DNA of 64,000 bases, taken from Pseudobdellovibrionaceae bacterium. GTDB lineage: Bacteria > Bdellovibrionota > Bdellovibrionia > Bdellovibrionales > Bdellovibrionaceae. Below the pieces are notes generated by a model. That model was not told the origin of the DNA, did no database searches, and worked only from the letters and a program-made list of their open reading frames with translations. Positions 4,551-16,472 of this stretch are shown piece by piece. Position numbers and translations under genes: made by a program. The stretch lies in the NCBI GenBank assembly GCA_031428135.1, contig JANPOT010000022.1, positions 19,201 to 83,200 of the forward strand, in the 5' to 3' direction. Every line of letters starts with the position of its first letter. Positions within the stretch are counted from its first letter, which is position 1.

Positions 4551-7500
4551 TTAGTTAGAAATCAATAAATCAAAGTCTTCTTTTGACAATCCACCTGAAT
4601 TTTTTGCAAGCTTCGTCGGATTTTCAACGTCAGACAATAAGGCCTGAAATTTACGATCCTTGCGCTCTTTAAGGATTTCAATTTTTTCCTCTAAAGACTC
4701 ATGCATAATGTATTTGAAGACTTGGACAGGCTTTTCCTGACCCAGCCTGTGCGCCCGATCCGTCGCTTGATTTTCAACCGATGGGTTCCACCATGGCTCT
4801 AAATGGAATACATAACTGGCTTTGGTTAAGTTTAAACCTACGCCACCCGTTTTTAACGTCATCAAAAGTACAGCGCCGGATTTCAAATGATGGAAATCTG
4901 ACAGAATAACCTGACGTTGTTTTGTTGGAACACCACCGTGTAAAACAAATACAGGAATATTATTTTTACGTAAAACCTCGGCCGTTCTGTTCAGAGTTTG
5001 AATAAACTGTGTAAATACTAATGCACTTTCACCGCTACTAATGATTTCGGTCACTGATTCCAACAGTGTCTGAATCTTAGGTGGTATTTTTTCATACTTC
5101 ACATTTGGTAATGCCGCAGGATCCGAGCATGCTTGGCGCAAACGTAAAAGCGCCGTTAACATTTGTAACTGGACATTGGGGGCTTTTGCGTCATTTGCTG
5201 GAAATTCAGACGTAAATTCATCAGTAAACTGACCCACATCTTCGATGTTATCATTATCAATGTCGTCAGTGTTTTTTAAATCAGCATTATTTTTAGCAGT
5301 CATATCCGTCAAAGCTTCTTGGATCTGGCGATTATAGGACAATGCAATATCACGATAAATTTGTTTTTGCTGATCTTCAAATGCAATTGATAATTTACTT
5401 TCTTGCTTCATTGGCAACTGATCTAAAATTTCCTTTTTAGTACGGCGTAACAACAAGGGCTTCATTTTTAATTTTAAATCGCTCATTTGTTCAGATGTGA
5501 TGATATCTGTATTTACGAACTGACGTCTAAAATCTTCAATTCGCCCTAATGAACCTGGCACCAAAATATCCATCAAAGAATAAAATTCACCGTAATGATT
5601 TTCCATCGGAGTACCCGTCAGGCAAATTTTGAATTGCGCTGACAATGACCTGGCTGCAGTTGTTCGTTTTGTTGCAATATTTTTTAAATTTTGCGCCTCA
5701 TCAAAAATAATTGTTTTCCATTTATATTGATCAAAATATTGATCGTGCTCCAACAGTAAACCATAGGTCGTAATGACCAACATCGGTATTTGATTCGCAA
5801 ATTTTTGGCCGACTTCATCCAATTTTTTGCTGTTAAATATCATCAATGGTAATTCCGGAGCAAATTTTTCAATTTCATTTTGCCAATTAAAAATCAAAGA
5901 CGATGGCACAACAATCAAAACTTGGCCCAGGTCATTTTTTTGTCGCAGAATTTCTAAAAAACATAATGCCTGTAATGTTTTTCCCAAACCCATATCATCC
6001 GCTAACAGGGCTCCTAATTTTAAATTATAGAGGTCTAAAATCCACTGAACACCGTACACCTGGTATGGCTTCAGATCCGCTTTAATTGTATTTGGAATCT
6101 GATTCAAAGGGCGAGTTGCACCCAATTGATCATAAAAATCACATAACTTTTTCCATTCATGATCGCCTCGAATTTGTATACCCGAAGCTCTTAATGCCAA
6201 CAGTTCTAATGTTTGATTGCGTGGCAATTGGTAAATTTTATCGTTTTTTTTCTGTTTAGAACTTTCGACTTTACCTTTTTGCAATTTTTGCCAAAAATGT
6301 TGCAGTCGACGTAATGAAGGAATTTGTTTCGCTGCCAAAATATAAATTTGACCTTCGTATTCGATGATTCCACCCTGGCTGCCTGTTAAAAATCGATCAG
6401 GGTCAACAGCTTTTCCATTTAAAAAAAACTGCGGGTTGAGTTCAAACCAATTAAAGTTTTTATTTTGATCCAGTTCGGATTCTAAAACAAAATCGACTTT
6501 GAATTGGTCTTCGTTTAATTCTTGCAATGGTTTGTCATTATAAAAAATAACAAAACCATGGGGAATCAATGGCTGCAAAGCATTTAATAAATCAACTAAA
6601 TGTTTGGATAACAAATCCATTTGAGTTTGAAATGAAGATCTGGGTTTTTTAAAAAATTCAGCTGAAGAATCAAAAATCATTTTTTGCATTAATGTAAATA
6701 TCAGCCTGAATTCTTTTTCGACTAATTGTTTCAAAACAATTTCGCCATTTTCTGAATAATAAGATTCGTCTGAATTGAAATTAAAAATTAATTCATCGAC
6801 CCATTTTTCAAAATAAATTAATACAGATTTTGAACACAAATCGACTAATGATTGATCTTGAAAAAATGTATTCCCTGGGCCCGCAATTAAAATATTTTTG
6901 ATGTTTTCATGCAAACTGATAAATACTGCGTCTTTTTGGTCTGTATCGATGATTCGTCCATCAGAGAGCTCTTTATAAAACAAATAATGTAAAACTTCAT
7001 AGGTTACATATTGTAAAATTCCGGTGTGTTTTAATATTTTCAGATCCCACTCTCGTCTGCGGGCTTGATTTGATGCCAGATCTTTGGGTTCAGCTTTTAA
7101 ATAAAATGATAGGCCTTCGGACAATGATTTAATCACTGTTGCTGAAATTTCAGACCAGTCTTTTTTGATTAAATCTTTTTGATCCGGAACACGCGCATGA
7201 GCTGCGATTTTTAATTCATTTTGGTCAGACAAATGAATGTGCAATTCGTGTTGGTTCATCGGAATTGTAATCGTATCCCCGCCGACTGTTGTTGGGATTG
7301 ATCTGGATTTTAAATATTGAATTGTTTTTTTAGCTAAAATTTGACTGGTGACTTCGAACTGAGGTCCCGATTGATTAAAAATTTCAACTTCTGATCCGAA
7401 AGATTTCAATTTTTCATCCAAGCAAATAAATTCATTCCGCCATGGGTATAATAAAATTGTCTGATCCTCAGGACGAATTGCAAATGAACTTAAGAAAAAT

Positions 7501-11861: not shown

Positions 11862-12377
11862 TTACTTTTTCTTAAGGGGCACAGTCACATTAAGGTTAAC
11901 TTGATTGTTAACGCCAACGCCCATGTATTTAACTCCGGTAATTCCATAATCAGATAATTTGATTGGAAAACTAGCGATCAGCTCATTACCTTCAACTGTA
12001 TAGATACCTTCAACATCTTTTTCTATGCCGCGAATTTTAAGTTTACCGCGACCTTTGCCGCCTTTTCCTGTCGCAGAAACTAATACGGCATCTGGATATT
12101 TTTCGACTTCAAGATATTTTGTTGTAGCATGCTTATCACGCATTTCAATTCCAGTTTTTAAATTTTTCAAACTCACTATAATATTTGAGGCGGCAATAGT
12201 GTCTCCGGTCATTAACGCTTCACCTTTAACTTCGCCAGTCTTTGCTTTAAAACTTCCAGCTGGTGATAATTCAACATCAACAACAGCGCCGGGTGTTGCC
12301 CATGCACCTATGCTACTGATGGACACGATTAAACTGACAATAACTTTTTTCCTTGCGTTTTTCATTGTGTTTTTCAT
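11862..12377 (-). CDS. YceI-family periplasmic lipid/polyisoprenoid-binding protein
   Basis: Signal peptide; LKTGIEMRDKHA, YLEVEKYP, IKLSDYGI; SD AAGGA before ATG 12377. Confidence 0.88.
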   Translation of the reverse strand: MKNTMKNARKKVIVSLIVSISSIGAWATPGAVVDVELSPAGSFKAKTGEVKGEALMTGDTIAASNIIVSLKNLKTGIEMRDKHATTKYLEVEKYPDAVLVSATGKGGKGRGKLKIRGIEKDVEGIYTVEGNELIASFPIKLSDYGITGVKYMGVGVNNQVNLNVTVPLKKK

Positions 12378-12396
12378 TGTGTTTTTCCTTTGTTGT

Positions 12397-12699
12397 TTAG
12401 TTATCAGCTGCTCCGCTATCAATCCAAGTTTTAATAGCGTTCAGCTGTATTGTTGTAAGACTAGATGAGCCTTTCGGCATGCTACCGCTTAATACCTTTT
12501 GGTAAAAAAGACTGCCGGCTCCGTTAAAAACAACGACACGCGTTTTTACGCCAGTATAATTTGCCATGTTGTAACCTCCGTCAGCGCCGGAACCAGAATG
12601 ACAAGAAAGACATTTACTTTGAACAACATTCGTATTGATCCATGCGAATGTTCCGAAAGTCGTCGCTGACGATGTCGTGGTGAAGCCCGAATTTCCCCC
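12397..12699 (-). pseudogene. Start-less reading frame encoding a c-type cytochrome domain (100 aa), absent from the ORF track
   Basis: My translation: GGNSGF...INTNVVQSKCLSCHSGSG...LFYQKVLSGSMPKGSSSLTTIQLNAIKTWIDSGAADN*; CxxCH, distal MP, and IKTWIDSGA tail; frame is preceded directly by an in-frame TAA. Confidence 0.8.
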
Positions 12700-12989
12700 T
12701 TAGAAACCTTTAGCTTTTCATTCCACATGTAATAACTAACCCCAAGCTCATAAGCTGAAGCCGTTCTGGGTGCAGGCTTTTTTATTTCTGCAGTTACTAC
12801 CGAAGCCACAGGTGCGACCACCAGCTGTGGCTTTGCTGCCGGTGCAGCTACATTTTTTACTGCTGTTTTTGTTGCAACTTTAATCTGTTTTTTAGGTGGA
12901 GGTGGAGCTTTTACTTGTGCTTGCGAAAAGGGTCCGACACCCAGACTAATCAAAATTTCTAAAATAAATATTTTGCTACCAAGAAACAT
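12699..12989 (-). pseudogene. Truncated secreted protein (signal peptide, Pro/Ala/Lys linker, first beta-strands of a probable outer-membrane barrel)
   Basis: First 97 aa look natural (…AYELGVSYYMWNEKLKVSK); the remaining ORF-track tail is the cytochrome gene read out of frame. Confidence 0.6.
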
Positions 12990-14142
12990 GGACCTGCCCT
13001 TGTAGTTGCCATTGATCTTTCGAGACCGCCTCTGGCGAAAAGTTTTTAAATTGAACTGCTGTCAACCTAACTTCAGTTCTTTGAAGCGGAAACATTAAAA
13101 ATCCAAACGTCCAACGCTCGAGTTCCGGAGCAGAAAATTTAGCTTCACTTTGACTGCGCTCGATGACTGTCAAAAAATTGTAGCCACGGACGAAGTGAAC
13201 CACAGATTGAAGTAAGCTATAAACCCCTGTCGTCGAATTGCTACCAACGGTTTGATCTTGCATTAAACCCGTTTCAAATAAAATACTTGAACCTTGGTTT
13301 CTTGGAAATCCCCAGCGGCTATGTATTGCTAAACGTTTTGATTCAATTTGCTCATTTTTTTCAGTTAAAGCCGATGCGCCAATTCTGGTTTTTTCCCCCA
13401 ACGAATATTCAAACTGAAATGCGCCACCAGCTTTTCTAACAGCTGCTGGTCGAAATAAATTGCCGGCAAAAAGATGTAAACTGGCGTCCCAGTTTTCTTC
13501 AATCCATTGCAGATGGGTTCCGTGAACTTGATCATCCTGTCCAAGACCGATCGCAGCACGACTGTATTGTGTATGATTAGACGTTCTAAGGCCGTAAACT
13601 TTATCCATTAAACCTGTCTCAACAAGAAGTTTATCCGTTAAGTAAAATCGAAAATAATGTTCTCGGGAAATGGCGTCGATTTTATTTCCATCACCGTAGT
13701 AATCTGTTGCGGGAATTCCAGTTAAACCATAGTTCAGAACAAATATTTTCTGAGATGCTTCATCAAAACTAACAACCACATTGATGTCTCGTTGCATTTG
13801 AATCCAACGACTTATTGATTCTGAACCGCCGGGTTTAGTTTGAAACCAAAGGCCACGGTATTTGACCGATGGACGAATCCACCACGGAAGTTCCGTACCC
13901 GGAATAAAACCCGAATATTTTTCTGCAACTTCTTCATCGGATGTTTTATCTGAAGTCCAAAAATTTCGTGCAGCTATTTCCTGAGAAAATAAAGCACGTC
14001 CGTAATCAGTTAACGGCCCATTTCCCTGACTGTTATAATGACACATGATACAGGTCTTGTATCCGTACCCAATAAAATCTGGATATGACCATGCTTGAAT
14101 CGAAAAATAAGAAATAAGTAACAAAAAAAGAAGATTGCGCAT
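12976..14142 (-). CDS. Outer-membrane beta-barrel protein with N-terminal single CxxCH haem motif
   Basis: Signal peptide; CIMCH; many amphipathic beta-strands; C-terminal aromatic residue (QVHVSW). Confidence 0.75.
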   Translation of the reverse strand: MRNLLFLLLISYFSIQAWSYPDFIGYGYKTCIMCHYNSQGNGPLTDYGRALFSQEIAARNFWTSDKTSDEEVAEKYSGFIPGTELPWWIRPSVKYRGLWFQTKPGGSESISRWIQMQRDINVVVSFDEASQKIFVLNYGLTGIPATDYYGDGNKIDAISREHYFRFYLTDKLLVETGLMDKVYGLRTSNHTQYSRAAIGLGQDDQVHGTHLQWIEENWDASLHLFAGNLFRPAAVRKAGGAFQFEYSLGEKTRIGASALTEKNEQIESKRLAIHSRWGFPRNQGSSILFETGLMQDQTVGSNSTTGVYSLLQSVVHFVRGYNFLTVIERSQSEAKFSAPELERWTFGFLMFPLQRTEVRLTAVQFKNFSPEAVSKDQWQLQGQVHVSW

Positions 14143-14391: not shown

Positions 14392-14467
14392 TGGTGGAGC
14401 CGACAGGACTCGAACCTGTAACCTACCGGTTCGAAGCCGGGAATTCTATCCATTGAACTACGGCTCC
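14392..14467 (-). tRNA. tRNA-Arg(UCG), CCA encoded
   Basis: 76-nt cloverleaf: GGAGCCG/CGGCTCC acceptor, CT-TCG-AA anticodon loop, GTTCGAGT T-loop, A20 Arg identity base. Confidence 0.95.
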
Positions 14468-15139: not shown

Positions 15140-15865
15140 TTACCACCCACCACTGGCTCCGCCGCCGCTGGACGATCCGCCACCGCCAGACCAACCACCA
15201 CCGTGGCCCGATCCGCCGCCGCCACCACGTCCGCCTGACATGGCCATATACAAAATGCTTAATCCAGTCGATGGACTGATTATAAAAATTAATAGCCATA
15301 GACCCAATAAAATTAAAATTATAAATCCACTGCCGCCCCGTGATTTTTTATTTTTAACTGGAACTGATTTTAAATTTTCATCATAATTTCCCTCAGTTGC
15401 AAAATGCTGCAGACTGGAAACGCCCTGTAAAACACCCTGATCAAAATCACCCTGTTTGAAATACGGAGTAACTATATCGGAAATAATTCGTTTCGCCGTA
15501 ATATCAGGAATGACTCCCTCAAGGCCCTGGCCGACTTCGATACGCAGTTTTTTTTCATTCGGAGCTATTAAAAATAACAGACCTTGATCGGTTTTTTCGT
15601 CGCCTAATTTCCATTTATCAAAAATTTGAATGGCAACGCTTGCGATATCTTCATCGTTCAGCGAACTGGTTACAAAAATTTGGATCTGGATTTTTTGTGT
15701 TTGTTTAAATTGATATAATGATTGTTCCAGCTGATTTTTGGCCTGAGGCGACAGAATACCCACTTGGTCGATCACTGGCCCCGTTAATTTGGGCACAACA
15801 AAGGCCTGTGTTTGAAAACACAAGCCAAGAATAAATAAAAAAATGCTTAAGTTTTTTATAGTCAG
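15140..15865 (-). CDS. TPM-domain (YgcG-like) protein with Gly-rich tail
   Basis: VIDQVGILS, LRIEVGQGLEGVIPD, GGGGSSSGGGASGGW; frame is open to 15874, so the signal peptide needs a CTG (15865) or ATA (15859) start. Confidence 0.88.
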   Translation of the reverse strand: MTIKNLSIFLFILGLCFQTQAFVVPKLTGPVIDQVGILSPQAKNQLEQSLYQFKQTQKIQIQIFVTSSLNDEDIASVAIQIFDKWKLGDEKTDQGLLFLIAPNEKKLRIEVGQGLEGVIPDITAKRIISDIVTPYFKQGDFDQGVLQGVSSLQHFATEGNYDENLKSVPVKNKKSRGGSGFIILILLGLWLLIFIISPSTGLSILYMAMSGGRGGGGGSGHGGGWSGGGGSSSGGGASGGW

Positions 15866-15890
15866 GCCTTTAGCTTAAAAATTACGACAA

Positions 15891-16472
15891 CTAAAATTTA
15901 ACTTCAGGTGGTTTTTCATTTTTTGCTTTTTCAGCAGCATCAACATCCCACTGAGGCATTTTTGCATGACGATAAAATAATGAATTTGTAAAGCTTGTTG
16001 GCGGAACATCGACTAAATTGTTAAAACCTTTGATTGTTTCGATATAGCGATTTCTTGCAACAGTGATTCGATTTTCTGTGCCTTCAAGCTGGGCTTGTAA
16101 ATCACGAAAATTTGCATCTGCTTTTAATTGTGGGTAATTTTCACTGACAACCATTAATTTACCCAAAGCTTGCGATAAATTGCCTTGTGCTGCCTGAAAA
16201 CTTTTTAATTTTTCAGGTGTTAAGTTTGTTGGATCAATTGTCATCTGAGTCGCTTTTGCACGCGCTTCGATGACACCAGTTAATGTTTCTTTTTCGTGTT
16301 TTGCATAACCTTTAACAACTTCGACCAGGCTGGGGATTAAATCTGAACGACGCTTGTATTGATTCGTGACTTCAGCAAGTGCTGCATCGACTTCGTTTTT
16401 TTGTTGAGGAATACTTTGAATTCCGCAACCTGACAAAAATAACACCACTGACAGTAATAAAATTGATTTCAT
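15891..16472 (-). CDS. lemA: LemA family lipoprotein
   Basis: LSGC lipobox; YKRRSDLIP, ENYPQLKAD, LEGTENRITVAR. Confidence 0.95.
   Translation of the reverse strand: MKSILLLSVVLFLSGCGIQSIPQQKNEVDAALAEVTNQYKRRSDLIPSLVEVVKGYAKHEKETLTGVIEARAKATQMTIDPTNLTPEKLKSFQAAQGNLSQALGKLMVVSENYPQLKADANFRDLQAQLEGTENRITVARNRYIETIKGFNNLVDVPPTSFTNSLFYRHAKMPQWDVDAAEKAKNEKPPEVKF

Follow-up and report, generated by a model that had tools for sequence, protein, structure and literature searches.

A probable, partly deleted copy of an envelope redox operon in a Bdellovibrionota genome

A haem-porin locus with a deletion scar

Four minus-strand open frames lie between a tRNA-Arg gene and a convergent gene in the stretch of Pseudobdellovibrionaceae DNA analysed here (the window, 64,000 nucleotides, C22:19201-83200). 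With a probability that we put at about 70%, the locus represents an envelope redox operon that is conserved in Bdellovibrionota and has here been partly deleted. The first frame, gene A, encodes an outer-membrane barrel with its own CxxCH motif and the last, gene D, a YceI-family protein (Table 1). The initial annotation had described four tightly packed genes, with a second probable barrel and a cytochrome c domain between these two. The packing was confirmed, as the 3' end of A and the 147-aa open reading frame (ORF) that opens with B share 14 nt, and A and YceI are intact. The two middle genes, however, are out-of-frame remnants of a deletion. The supposed second barrel keeps only the first 96 codons of a small barrel gene, B, and then runs into nonsense, while the supposed cytochrome c gene is a stop-to-stop frame lacking a start, the remnant of a longer gene, X. 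The genome is 2.65 Mb in 37 contigs with a completeness of 99.98%.

The four closest relatives (L013, equal to L026; L025; L027; L028) have an A about 80% identical to that of the window and the operon order A-B-X-YceI. In these genomes A is 387 aa, B 216-266 aa and YceI 163 aa. Compared with L013, 2,368 bp are missing from the window, and about 2.37 kb relative to the four relatives together. DNA homology to all four ends after A and resumes exactly at window position 12699. Codon 96 of B is joined there to about codon 595 of X, the X frame being -1 relative to that of B. The 147-aa ORF aligns with B homologues through 96 codons only, up to ...YMWNEKLKVS. This part, B', holds a signal peptide, a linker rich in Ala, Pro and Lys, and the first beta-strand, with 47% identity to L013 over residues 50-96 by tblastn. 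The last 50 codons are the wrong frame of the cytochrome c domain. In a profile search of the whole genome the sole match to B was the window fragment, covering profile positions 2-62 of 205, and no other copy of B was found at this completeness.

The remnant of X, X', is the C-terminal monohaem domain with the motif CLSCH. All 100 of its residues align with the C-terminal end of the 694-aa X of L013, at 79% identity. An independent start for X' was considered and rejected, as no ATG, GTG or TTG precedes CLSCH in its frame. It matched NCBIfam LIC11213_lipo (NF047812) at 56.7 bits (55.7 in the genome scan; E = 2e-15), below the cut-off of 100. Scores to Pfam PF13442 (Cytochrome_CBB3; 19.6 bits, E = 1e-3, cut-off 27) and PF07635 (PSCyt1; 15.9 bits, cut-off 22) were also below threshold. 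X' has neither stops nor indels, and its ratio of nonsynonymous to synonymous substitution rates (dN/dS) is about 0.10 against the relatives at a dS of about 1.3-1.5. By this sequence evidence, therefore, the deletion happened recently or else translation of the domain continues. Because the join is out of frame in the assembly, B' continues for 50 codons of nonsense and the X haem domain has no start. As assembled, the locus is predicted to make neither the small barrel nor the cytochrome c. A scan of the locus for promoters and terminators did no better than on shuffled sequence.

Gene A and its relation to Cyc2

The initial annotation's outer-membrane barrel with an N-terminal CxxCH is upheld by a 388-aa ORF with a signal peptide, a CxxCH and a modelled 16-strand porin. 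The signal peptide, MRNLLFLLLISYFSIQAWS, is followed by YP, with cleavage probably between AWS and YP as judged by inspection, and the hydrophobic N-terminus is aligned in all 30 A homologues. The haem head spans about residues 20-88, ahead of the 16-strand beta-barrel, and carries YKTCIMCHYN, with the CxxCH at residues 31-35 (C31, C34 and H35). Conservation of this motif had been named as a check on a haem-barrel reading, and the reading passes it: the CxxCH and 33 other columns are invariant in the 30 homologues, down to 40% identity. The invariant positions include Y20, P21, F23, Y28, G40, G42 and D46-Y47-G48-R49. M116, H190 and H385 are invariant as well and are candidate distal haem ligands.

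An AlphaFold2 model built on the alignment of the 30 homologues has a head of about 65 residues with short helices and then 16 beta-strands (pLDDT, for predicted local distance difference test, 82.5; predicted TM-score, pTM, 0.80). Foldseek matched the model to 16-strand porins, with OprP (2o4v) at rank 3 and OprO (4rjw) at rank 15. The dN/dS of A against the relatives is 0.05-0.07. No family recognised A in the Pfam and NCBIfam scans, and a profile search of PDB sequences returned chance matches to acetyltransferases only. The genome encodes a member of the haem-lyase family (PF01578).

The initial annotation left the comparison with Cyc2 open. Keffer et al. 2021 describe Cyc2 as having a signal peptide, one CXXCH and a 16-strand porin, with OprP and OprO as structural templates (PMC8406198). 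They give as family-specific an AXPXFAR[Q/K][T/Y] upstream of CXXCH and a PXL downstream, and use PXFAR[Q/K][T/Y] as the membership filter (PMC8406198). The named comparators here were A. ferrooxidans Cyc2, Mariprofundus Cyc2PV-1 and the characterised Ghiorsea Cyc2TAG1_1, which is 389 aa (PMC13692758). A comparison set was also drawn from metagenome contigs with a degenerate DNA pattern for the Cyc2 motif, giving 50 full-length ORFs of 371-518 aa that bear PxFARQT (for example ...ALPVFARQTGMACSACHFQHFPMLNAFGRSFK); these were picked by motif and are not characterised Cyc2 proteins.

The design of A is that of Cyc2. Like Cyc2, A has a signal peptide, a single CxxCH about 12 residues past the cleavage site, a length of about 390 aa (at least 365 aa being among the features used by Keffer et al. 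2021), a 16-strand porin body matching OprP/OprO and a periplasmic c-type cytochrome as partner. In hhalign, family A aligned with the 50 motif-bearing proteins over the full length with a probability of 91.8% (E = 7e-7, 322 columns) and over the haem head only with a probability of 96.1% (E = 4e-9). The head alignment is in register. AYPDF of A corresponds to AVPSF of the Cyc2-like set, AxPxF being equally distant from the CxxCH in both (P at -10, F at -8), and LTDYGR to LTxFGR, a shared L-[TN]-x-[FY]-G-R. Rather than a PXL 4 residues after CXXCH, A has GPL 7-8 residues after the His (CIMCHYNSQGNGPLTDYGR). This PxL is displaced by 3-4 residues relative to Cyc2, and the L-T-x-Y-G-R following it resembles the L-[TN]-x-F-G-R of the motif-bearing set.

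A differs from Cyc2 in having FIGYGY where Cyc2 has FAR[QK][TY]; the paralogous family described below has MVRHGY at this place. Its partners, namely YceI, a small 8-strand barrel and a lipoprotein cytochrome on an FN3 stalk, are not known for Cyc2, and its hosts are predatory-type aerobes, not iron oxidisers. Family A is known from sequence and models. We file A outside Cyc2 because it fails the published filter and its barrel shares no measurable sequence with the Cyc2-like barrels. The likeness extends to architecture, size, 16-strand fold and, by profile comparison with the motif-bearing set (probability 96%), a related haem head, but not to the barrel sequence or the Cyc2 motif. Judged by its sequence, A is a separate Cyc2-like family with the Cyc2 design and a related haem head, and not a Cyc2.

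Partner genes, distribution and a paralogous set

Among relatives B is 170-280 aa, and in the nearest ones its start overlaps the end of A. AlphaFold2 modelled intact B as an 8-strand barrel (pLDDT 90.6), which Foldseek matched to OmpA-TM, NspA, Ail and OmpX (E = 3e-6 to 1e-5). B had no Pfam or NCBIfam match. The relatives' B has the 8-strand fold of the OmpA/OmpX/OmpW kind, of which the window copy keeps the first strand only.

The X of L013 has a hydrophobic N-terminus followed by a Cys, a cytochrome c domain (CLTCH), five FN3 modules (Pfam fn3, 116.5 bits) and a second cytochrome c domain (CLSCH). It is probably a lipoprotein whose five-FN3 stalk bears a c-type haem domain at either end. 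Intact, it passes the thresholds of PF13442 (36.9 bits) and PF07635 (24.7 bits). The X cytochrome c domain is the best match in the window to the NCBIfam model of the LIC11213 family lipoprotein of Leptospira (NF047812), but X' is below the cut-off and not a member, and in X the domain ends a long multidomain protein. From the first to the last cytochrome domain X spans about 1.95 kb in L025 and about 1.96-2.0 kb in the other close relatives. L033 has it as a single cytochrome domain, and L030 and L032 lack it altogether; over evolution the cytochrome partner is labile.

The YceI gene proposed in the initial annotation proved intact, scoring 60.1 bits against PF04264 (cut-off 23.7; E = 4e-16), a match confirmed in the whole-genome scan. 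It alone among the four open frames passes a family threshold. The ORF list places it at 11862-12422 from a TTG at 12422, but translation probably starts at the ATG at 12377, which follows an AAGGA ribosome-binding site, giving 171 aa. Its signal peptide is of the signal-peptidase I type. The protein is 69-75% identical to the operon-terminal YceI of the relatives, with a dN/dS of 0.07-0.20. YceI domains bind ubiquinone-8 or other polyisoprenoids and have repeatedly been crystallised with ubiquinone-8 or other octaprenyl ligands (PMC8981238; PMC9113575).

We surveyed 80 A loci from named genomes. In 68 of the 80, a B-like ORF begins no more than a few bases from the end of A. YceI lies within -2.5/+3.5 kb of A in 52 (34 of 54 among the loci with enough flank), and a protein with a cytochrome c domain is near A in 29. 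The orientation of YceI to A varies, being convergent in 30 loci, divergent upstream in 14, co-directional downstream in six and co-directional upstream in two. That the A-YceI link survives rearrangement argues for function over inheritance of one arrangement. Synteny elsewhere had been proposed as a check, and the neighbourhood recurs in the 80 loci and in the paralogous family, so the operon reading was not overturned.

Family A comprises 1,521 representative clusters at E<=1e-3, and the best 150 of the 1,521 are all close family. Matches occur in 128 of 201 sampled Bdellovibrionota genomes and 72 of 124 genera, and each of the 14 genomes sampled from the genus Bdellovibrio proper has the family. 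In a protein atlas A matched clusters from Bdellovibrionota and Myxococcota, one cluster of the family being commonest in Myxococcota, and the nearest named cluster was tagged Porin_O_P. About 1 kb downstream of its A-B-X-YceI operon, L028 has a second A-B pair (L028:13599-15630), 43% identical to the first and with a cytochrome c domain on the opposite strand. It looks like a tandem duplication of the module.

A second, distantly related family of haem barrels aligns with family A in hhalign with a probability of 100% (E = 5e-42). Its head motif is AFPEMVRHGYxNCxxCH, in which FPEMVRHGY keeps the R of the Cyc2 motif, and the order cytochrome c lipoprotein-YceI-barrel is kept across several families of the order. 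On its contig C36 the present genome carries such a paralogous set intact (L105:4727-7127, minus strand), with a YceI, a haem barrel and a dihaem lipoprotein whose genes overlap or nearly touch (Table 1). Two of the three threshold-passing YceI genes of the genome adjoin a haem barrel. A candidate third module on contig C16 was rejected, as it combines a dihaem lipoprotein cytochrome with a broken YceI-like fragment and has no haem barrel. That locus (L236:3375-5283) codes for a 224-aa dihaem lipoprotein cytochrome c with CISCH and CKDCH, then a 404-aa protein whose repeats are ankyrin-like and whose C-terminus is cupredoxin-like. The YceI-like fragment, a weak match with a TAA stop, lies about 1.4 kb downstream.

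Table 1. Coordinates of the haem-porin locus in the window and of the paralogous set on contig C36 (L105 numbering)
Feature	Position	Strand	Description	Basis
Gene A	12976-14142	minus	intact 388-aa ORF, predicted fused monohaem cytochrome-porin	
147-aa ORF	12546-12989	minus	B' and nonsense tail	ORF list
B'	12700-12989	minus	first 96 codons of small outer-membrane barrel gene	alignment to B homologues
Tail of the B' ORF	12546-12699	minus	out of frame, 50 codons to TAA (EIRASPRHRQRR...)	translations
X'	12397-12699	minus	last 100 codons and stop of cytochrome c-FN3-cytochrome c lipoprotein gene	stop-to-stop frame with CLSCH
Deletion junction	12696-12701	minus	G5 run within AAGGGGGAAAT (12690-12701)	sequence, mapping against L013
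Gene D	11862-12377	minus	YceI-family periplasmic lipocalin, intact	Pfam PF04264
tRNA-Arg(TCG)	14392-14467	minus	upstream limit of operon, directly upstream of gene A	ARAGORN
C36 (L105) YceI	6570-7127	minus	185 aa	
C36 (L105) haem barrel	5448-6545	minus	365 aa, AFPDMIRHGYTNCTACH	
C36 (L105) dihaem lipoprotein cytochrome c	4727-5572	minus	281 aa, lipobox LASC	

Possible role of the module and rival explanations

The module likely serves electron transfer across the outer membrane. A porin-cytochrome conduit had been suggested in the initial annotation; the conserved CxxCH, the recurring neighbourhood and the Cyc2-like head speak for it, but two genes of this copy have been lost. The scavenging of haem or quinone from prey, also raised there, is speculative. 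MtrCAB, PioAB, MtoAB and the Geobacter Pcc systems likewise combine an outer-membrane barrel and c-type cytochromes in one operon, presumably for electron transfer across the outer membrane. Theirs are barrels of 20-28 strands around separate multihaem cytochromes of 8-10 haems or more, whereas here a 16-strand barrel has its own single haem motif and partners with one or two CXXCH. A thus has neither the more than 20 strands nor the separate multihaem cytochrome of the MtrB/PioB type.

A parallel to the partner genes comes from Cellvibrio, where Cbp2D has a YceI domain fused to FN3 and two cytochrome c domains, delivers electrons outside the cell and reduces lytic polysaccharide monooxygenases (LPMOs; PMC8981238; PMC9113575). 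Like our module, Cbp2D/Cbp2E of Cellvibrio japonicus and Saccharophagus degradans (YceI-like X158) bring together a ubiquinone-8-binding YceI lipocalin, FN3 spacers and two monohaem cytochromes c, with electron delivery outside the cytoplasm, which we infer for the present module. In our module, however, YceI has a gene of its own. The cytochrome/FN3 protein is probably a lipoprotein and lacks a carbohydrate-binding module, and of its gene only the part for the last domain is left in the window. A haem porin is the partner here and an LPMO there. Because Cbp2D holds the same domain set as X and YceI, a protein-bound quinone could join the relay.

A route for the electrons can be proposed. On the model of Cyc2, a soluble redox substrate, Fe(II) for example, would enter the pore of A and exchange an electron with the haem at the N-terminal, periplasmic end of the barrel. 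The electron may then pass to periplasmic carriers, either the haem domains of X on the FN3 stalk or an isoprenoid quinone held by YceI, or both, and from these to the respiratory chain, or flow could run in reverse. With one haem domain beside the lipid anchor and the other past five FN3 modules, X might act as a tethered shuttle able to span the periplasm. In the present locus, which lacks X, A would depend for its function on YceI or on cytochromes encoded elsewhere, such as the dihaem lipoprotein on C36. Iron oxidation is, to our knowledge, the sole precedent for the substrate of a fused cytochrome-porin. Only tentatively do we propose that the Cyc2-like haem porin, the tethered cytochrome c lipoprotein and YceI make up a previously undescribed outer-membrane electron conduit of predatory Bdellovibrionota, with YceI-bound isoprenoid quinone as a periplasmic electron carrier.

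Several observations weigh against reading the locus as a partly deleted redox operon built on a Cyc2-like porin. Aligned by barrel only, family A and the Cyc2-like proteins gave an hhalign probability of 4.3%, which is no sequence signal, control alignments of a barrel with the small barrel giving 2-6%. Both aligned sets had been required to contain CxxCH, which is the source of part of the head score. Instead of PXFAR[Q/K][T/Y], A has YPDFIGYGY and keeps only A-x-P-x-F. No YceI was found in 80 canonical Cyc2-like loci (432 kb in total, 24 loci of at least 7 kb), and Cyc2 is therefore no precedent for a YceI partner. The lack of decay in X' also fits a domain that is still translated, and not only a recent deletion. 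Finally, all statements here on haem attachment and outer-membrane location in family A, on its substrate and on which way the electrons flow are inferred.

The frame break may not be real (G6 in place of G5) or may be bypassed by a -1 slip, and the locus would then make an in-frame chimera of about 196 aa, with the B signal peptide and linker ahead of the C-terminal monohaem domain of X, as a small secreted cytochrome c serving A. One extra G would restore ...KVSKG-GNSGF... exactly at the junction, and a tRNA-Gly would be able to re-pair at -1 in GGGGG. X' lacks stops and indels with a dN/dS as low as that of the intact genes, and a short single-domain cytochrome replaces the long X in some relatives (L033). 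We nonetheless consider the chimera unlikely. The assembly has G5, and with the adjacent genes intact it does not look error-prone. Five Gs make a short run for slippage to be efficient, and no canonical X XXY YYZ heptamer is present at the site. Two thirds of random deletions are out of frame, and a recent deletion accounts equally well for the undecayed X'.

The constancy of YceI, the most constant neighbour of the haem barrels, and the lack of any YceI in the canonical iron-oxidiser Cyc2-like loci surveyed could also point to a role of the module in protecting or servicing the lipids of the envelope. A quinone or other isoprenoid bound by YceI would then either quench lipid radicals or be handed on to the outer membrane, with the haem proteins re-reducing or oxidising this ligand, as with BcnA (YceI) and LcoA (cytochrome b561). 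Burkholderia YceI lipocalins with a cytochrome partner do detoxify lipid peroxyl radicals (PMC9113575). In BcnA-LcoA, as in YceI-YceJ of E. coli, a YceI lipocalin is genetically coupled to an envelope haem protein, but that partner is an inner-membrane b-type cytochrome (b561 in the case known to act on lipids) and not an outer-membrane c-type haem porin. With the haem head of A related to Cyc2 and an open 16-strand porin suggesting a soluble substrate, lipid protection seems quite improbable as the role of the module. A further possibility is an ordinary diffusion porin in which the CxxCH would bind a metal or form a disulfide, with the nearby cytochromes and YceI unrelated. The barrel of A does match general porins best, and no Pfam or NCBIfam family recognises the protein. 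The CxxCH His and the flanking AYPxF...LTxYGR are invariant, however, and align with the Cyc2 haem head, and the partners, cytochrome c and YceI, are kept despite rearrangements and recur in the paralogous family. We consider this explanation very improbable.

If the proposed conduit is correct, the predator could exchange electrons with extracellular or prey-derived redox substrates, and this genome would amount to a natural knockout in which the cytochrome and the small barrel are missing. It also offers a natural experiment, with one copy lacking the cytochrome and small barrel and an intact paralogous set elsewhere in the genome. Cyc2 serves as the marker for neutrophilic iron oxidation. 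Most sampled Bdellovibrionota, which are not known iron oxidisers, carry a large sister family that does not pass the Cyc2 motif filter, and this suggests that the redox tasks of fused cytochrome-porins at the outer membrane extend beyond iron lithotrophy. The constancy of the YceI partner provides a testable idea for the purpose of periplasmic YceI lipocalins with bound ubiquinone, a long-standing puzzle. What the window adds is the small barrel B, specific to the A clade, and the natural deletion. In the literature searched we found no paper on the haem-porin family, the module or the YceI link, only incidental mentions of Cyc2 with Bdellovibrio, and none of YceI and Cyc2 together. In one preprint Bdellovibrionia metagenome-assembled genomes score for extracellular-electron-transfer genes, and no more is said.

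Elsewhere in the window, a LemA-like gene (15891-16472, minus strand) is the first of a trio spanning 15140-16472. Next comes a gene for a 227-aa protein whose C-terminal tail (GGRGGGGGSGHGGGWSGGGG...) is rich in glycine, and after it one for a 211-aa membrane protein. This LemA/TPM-type trio is of a common kind and bears no relation to the haem-porin locus.

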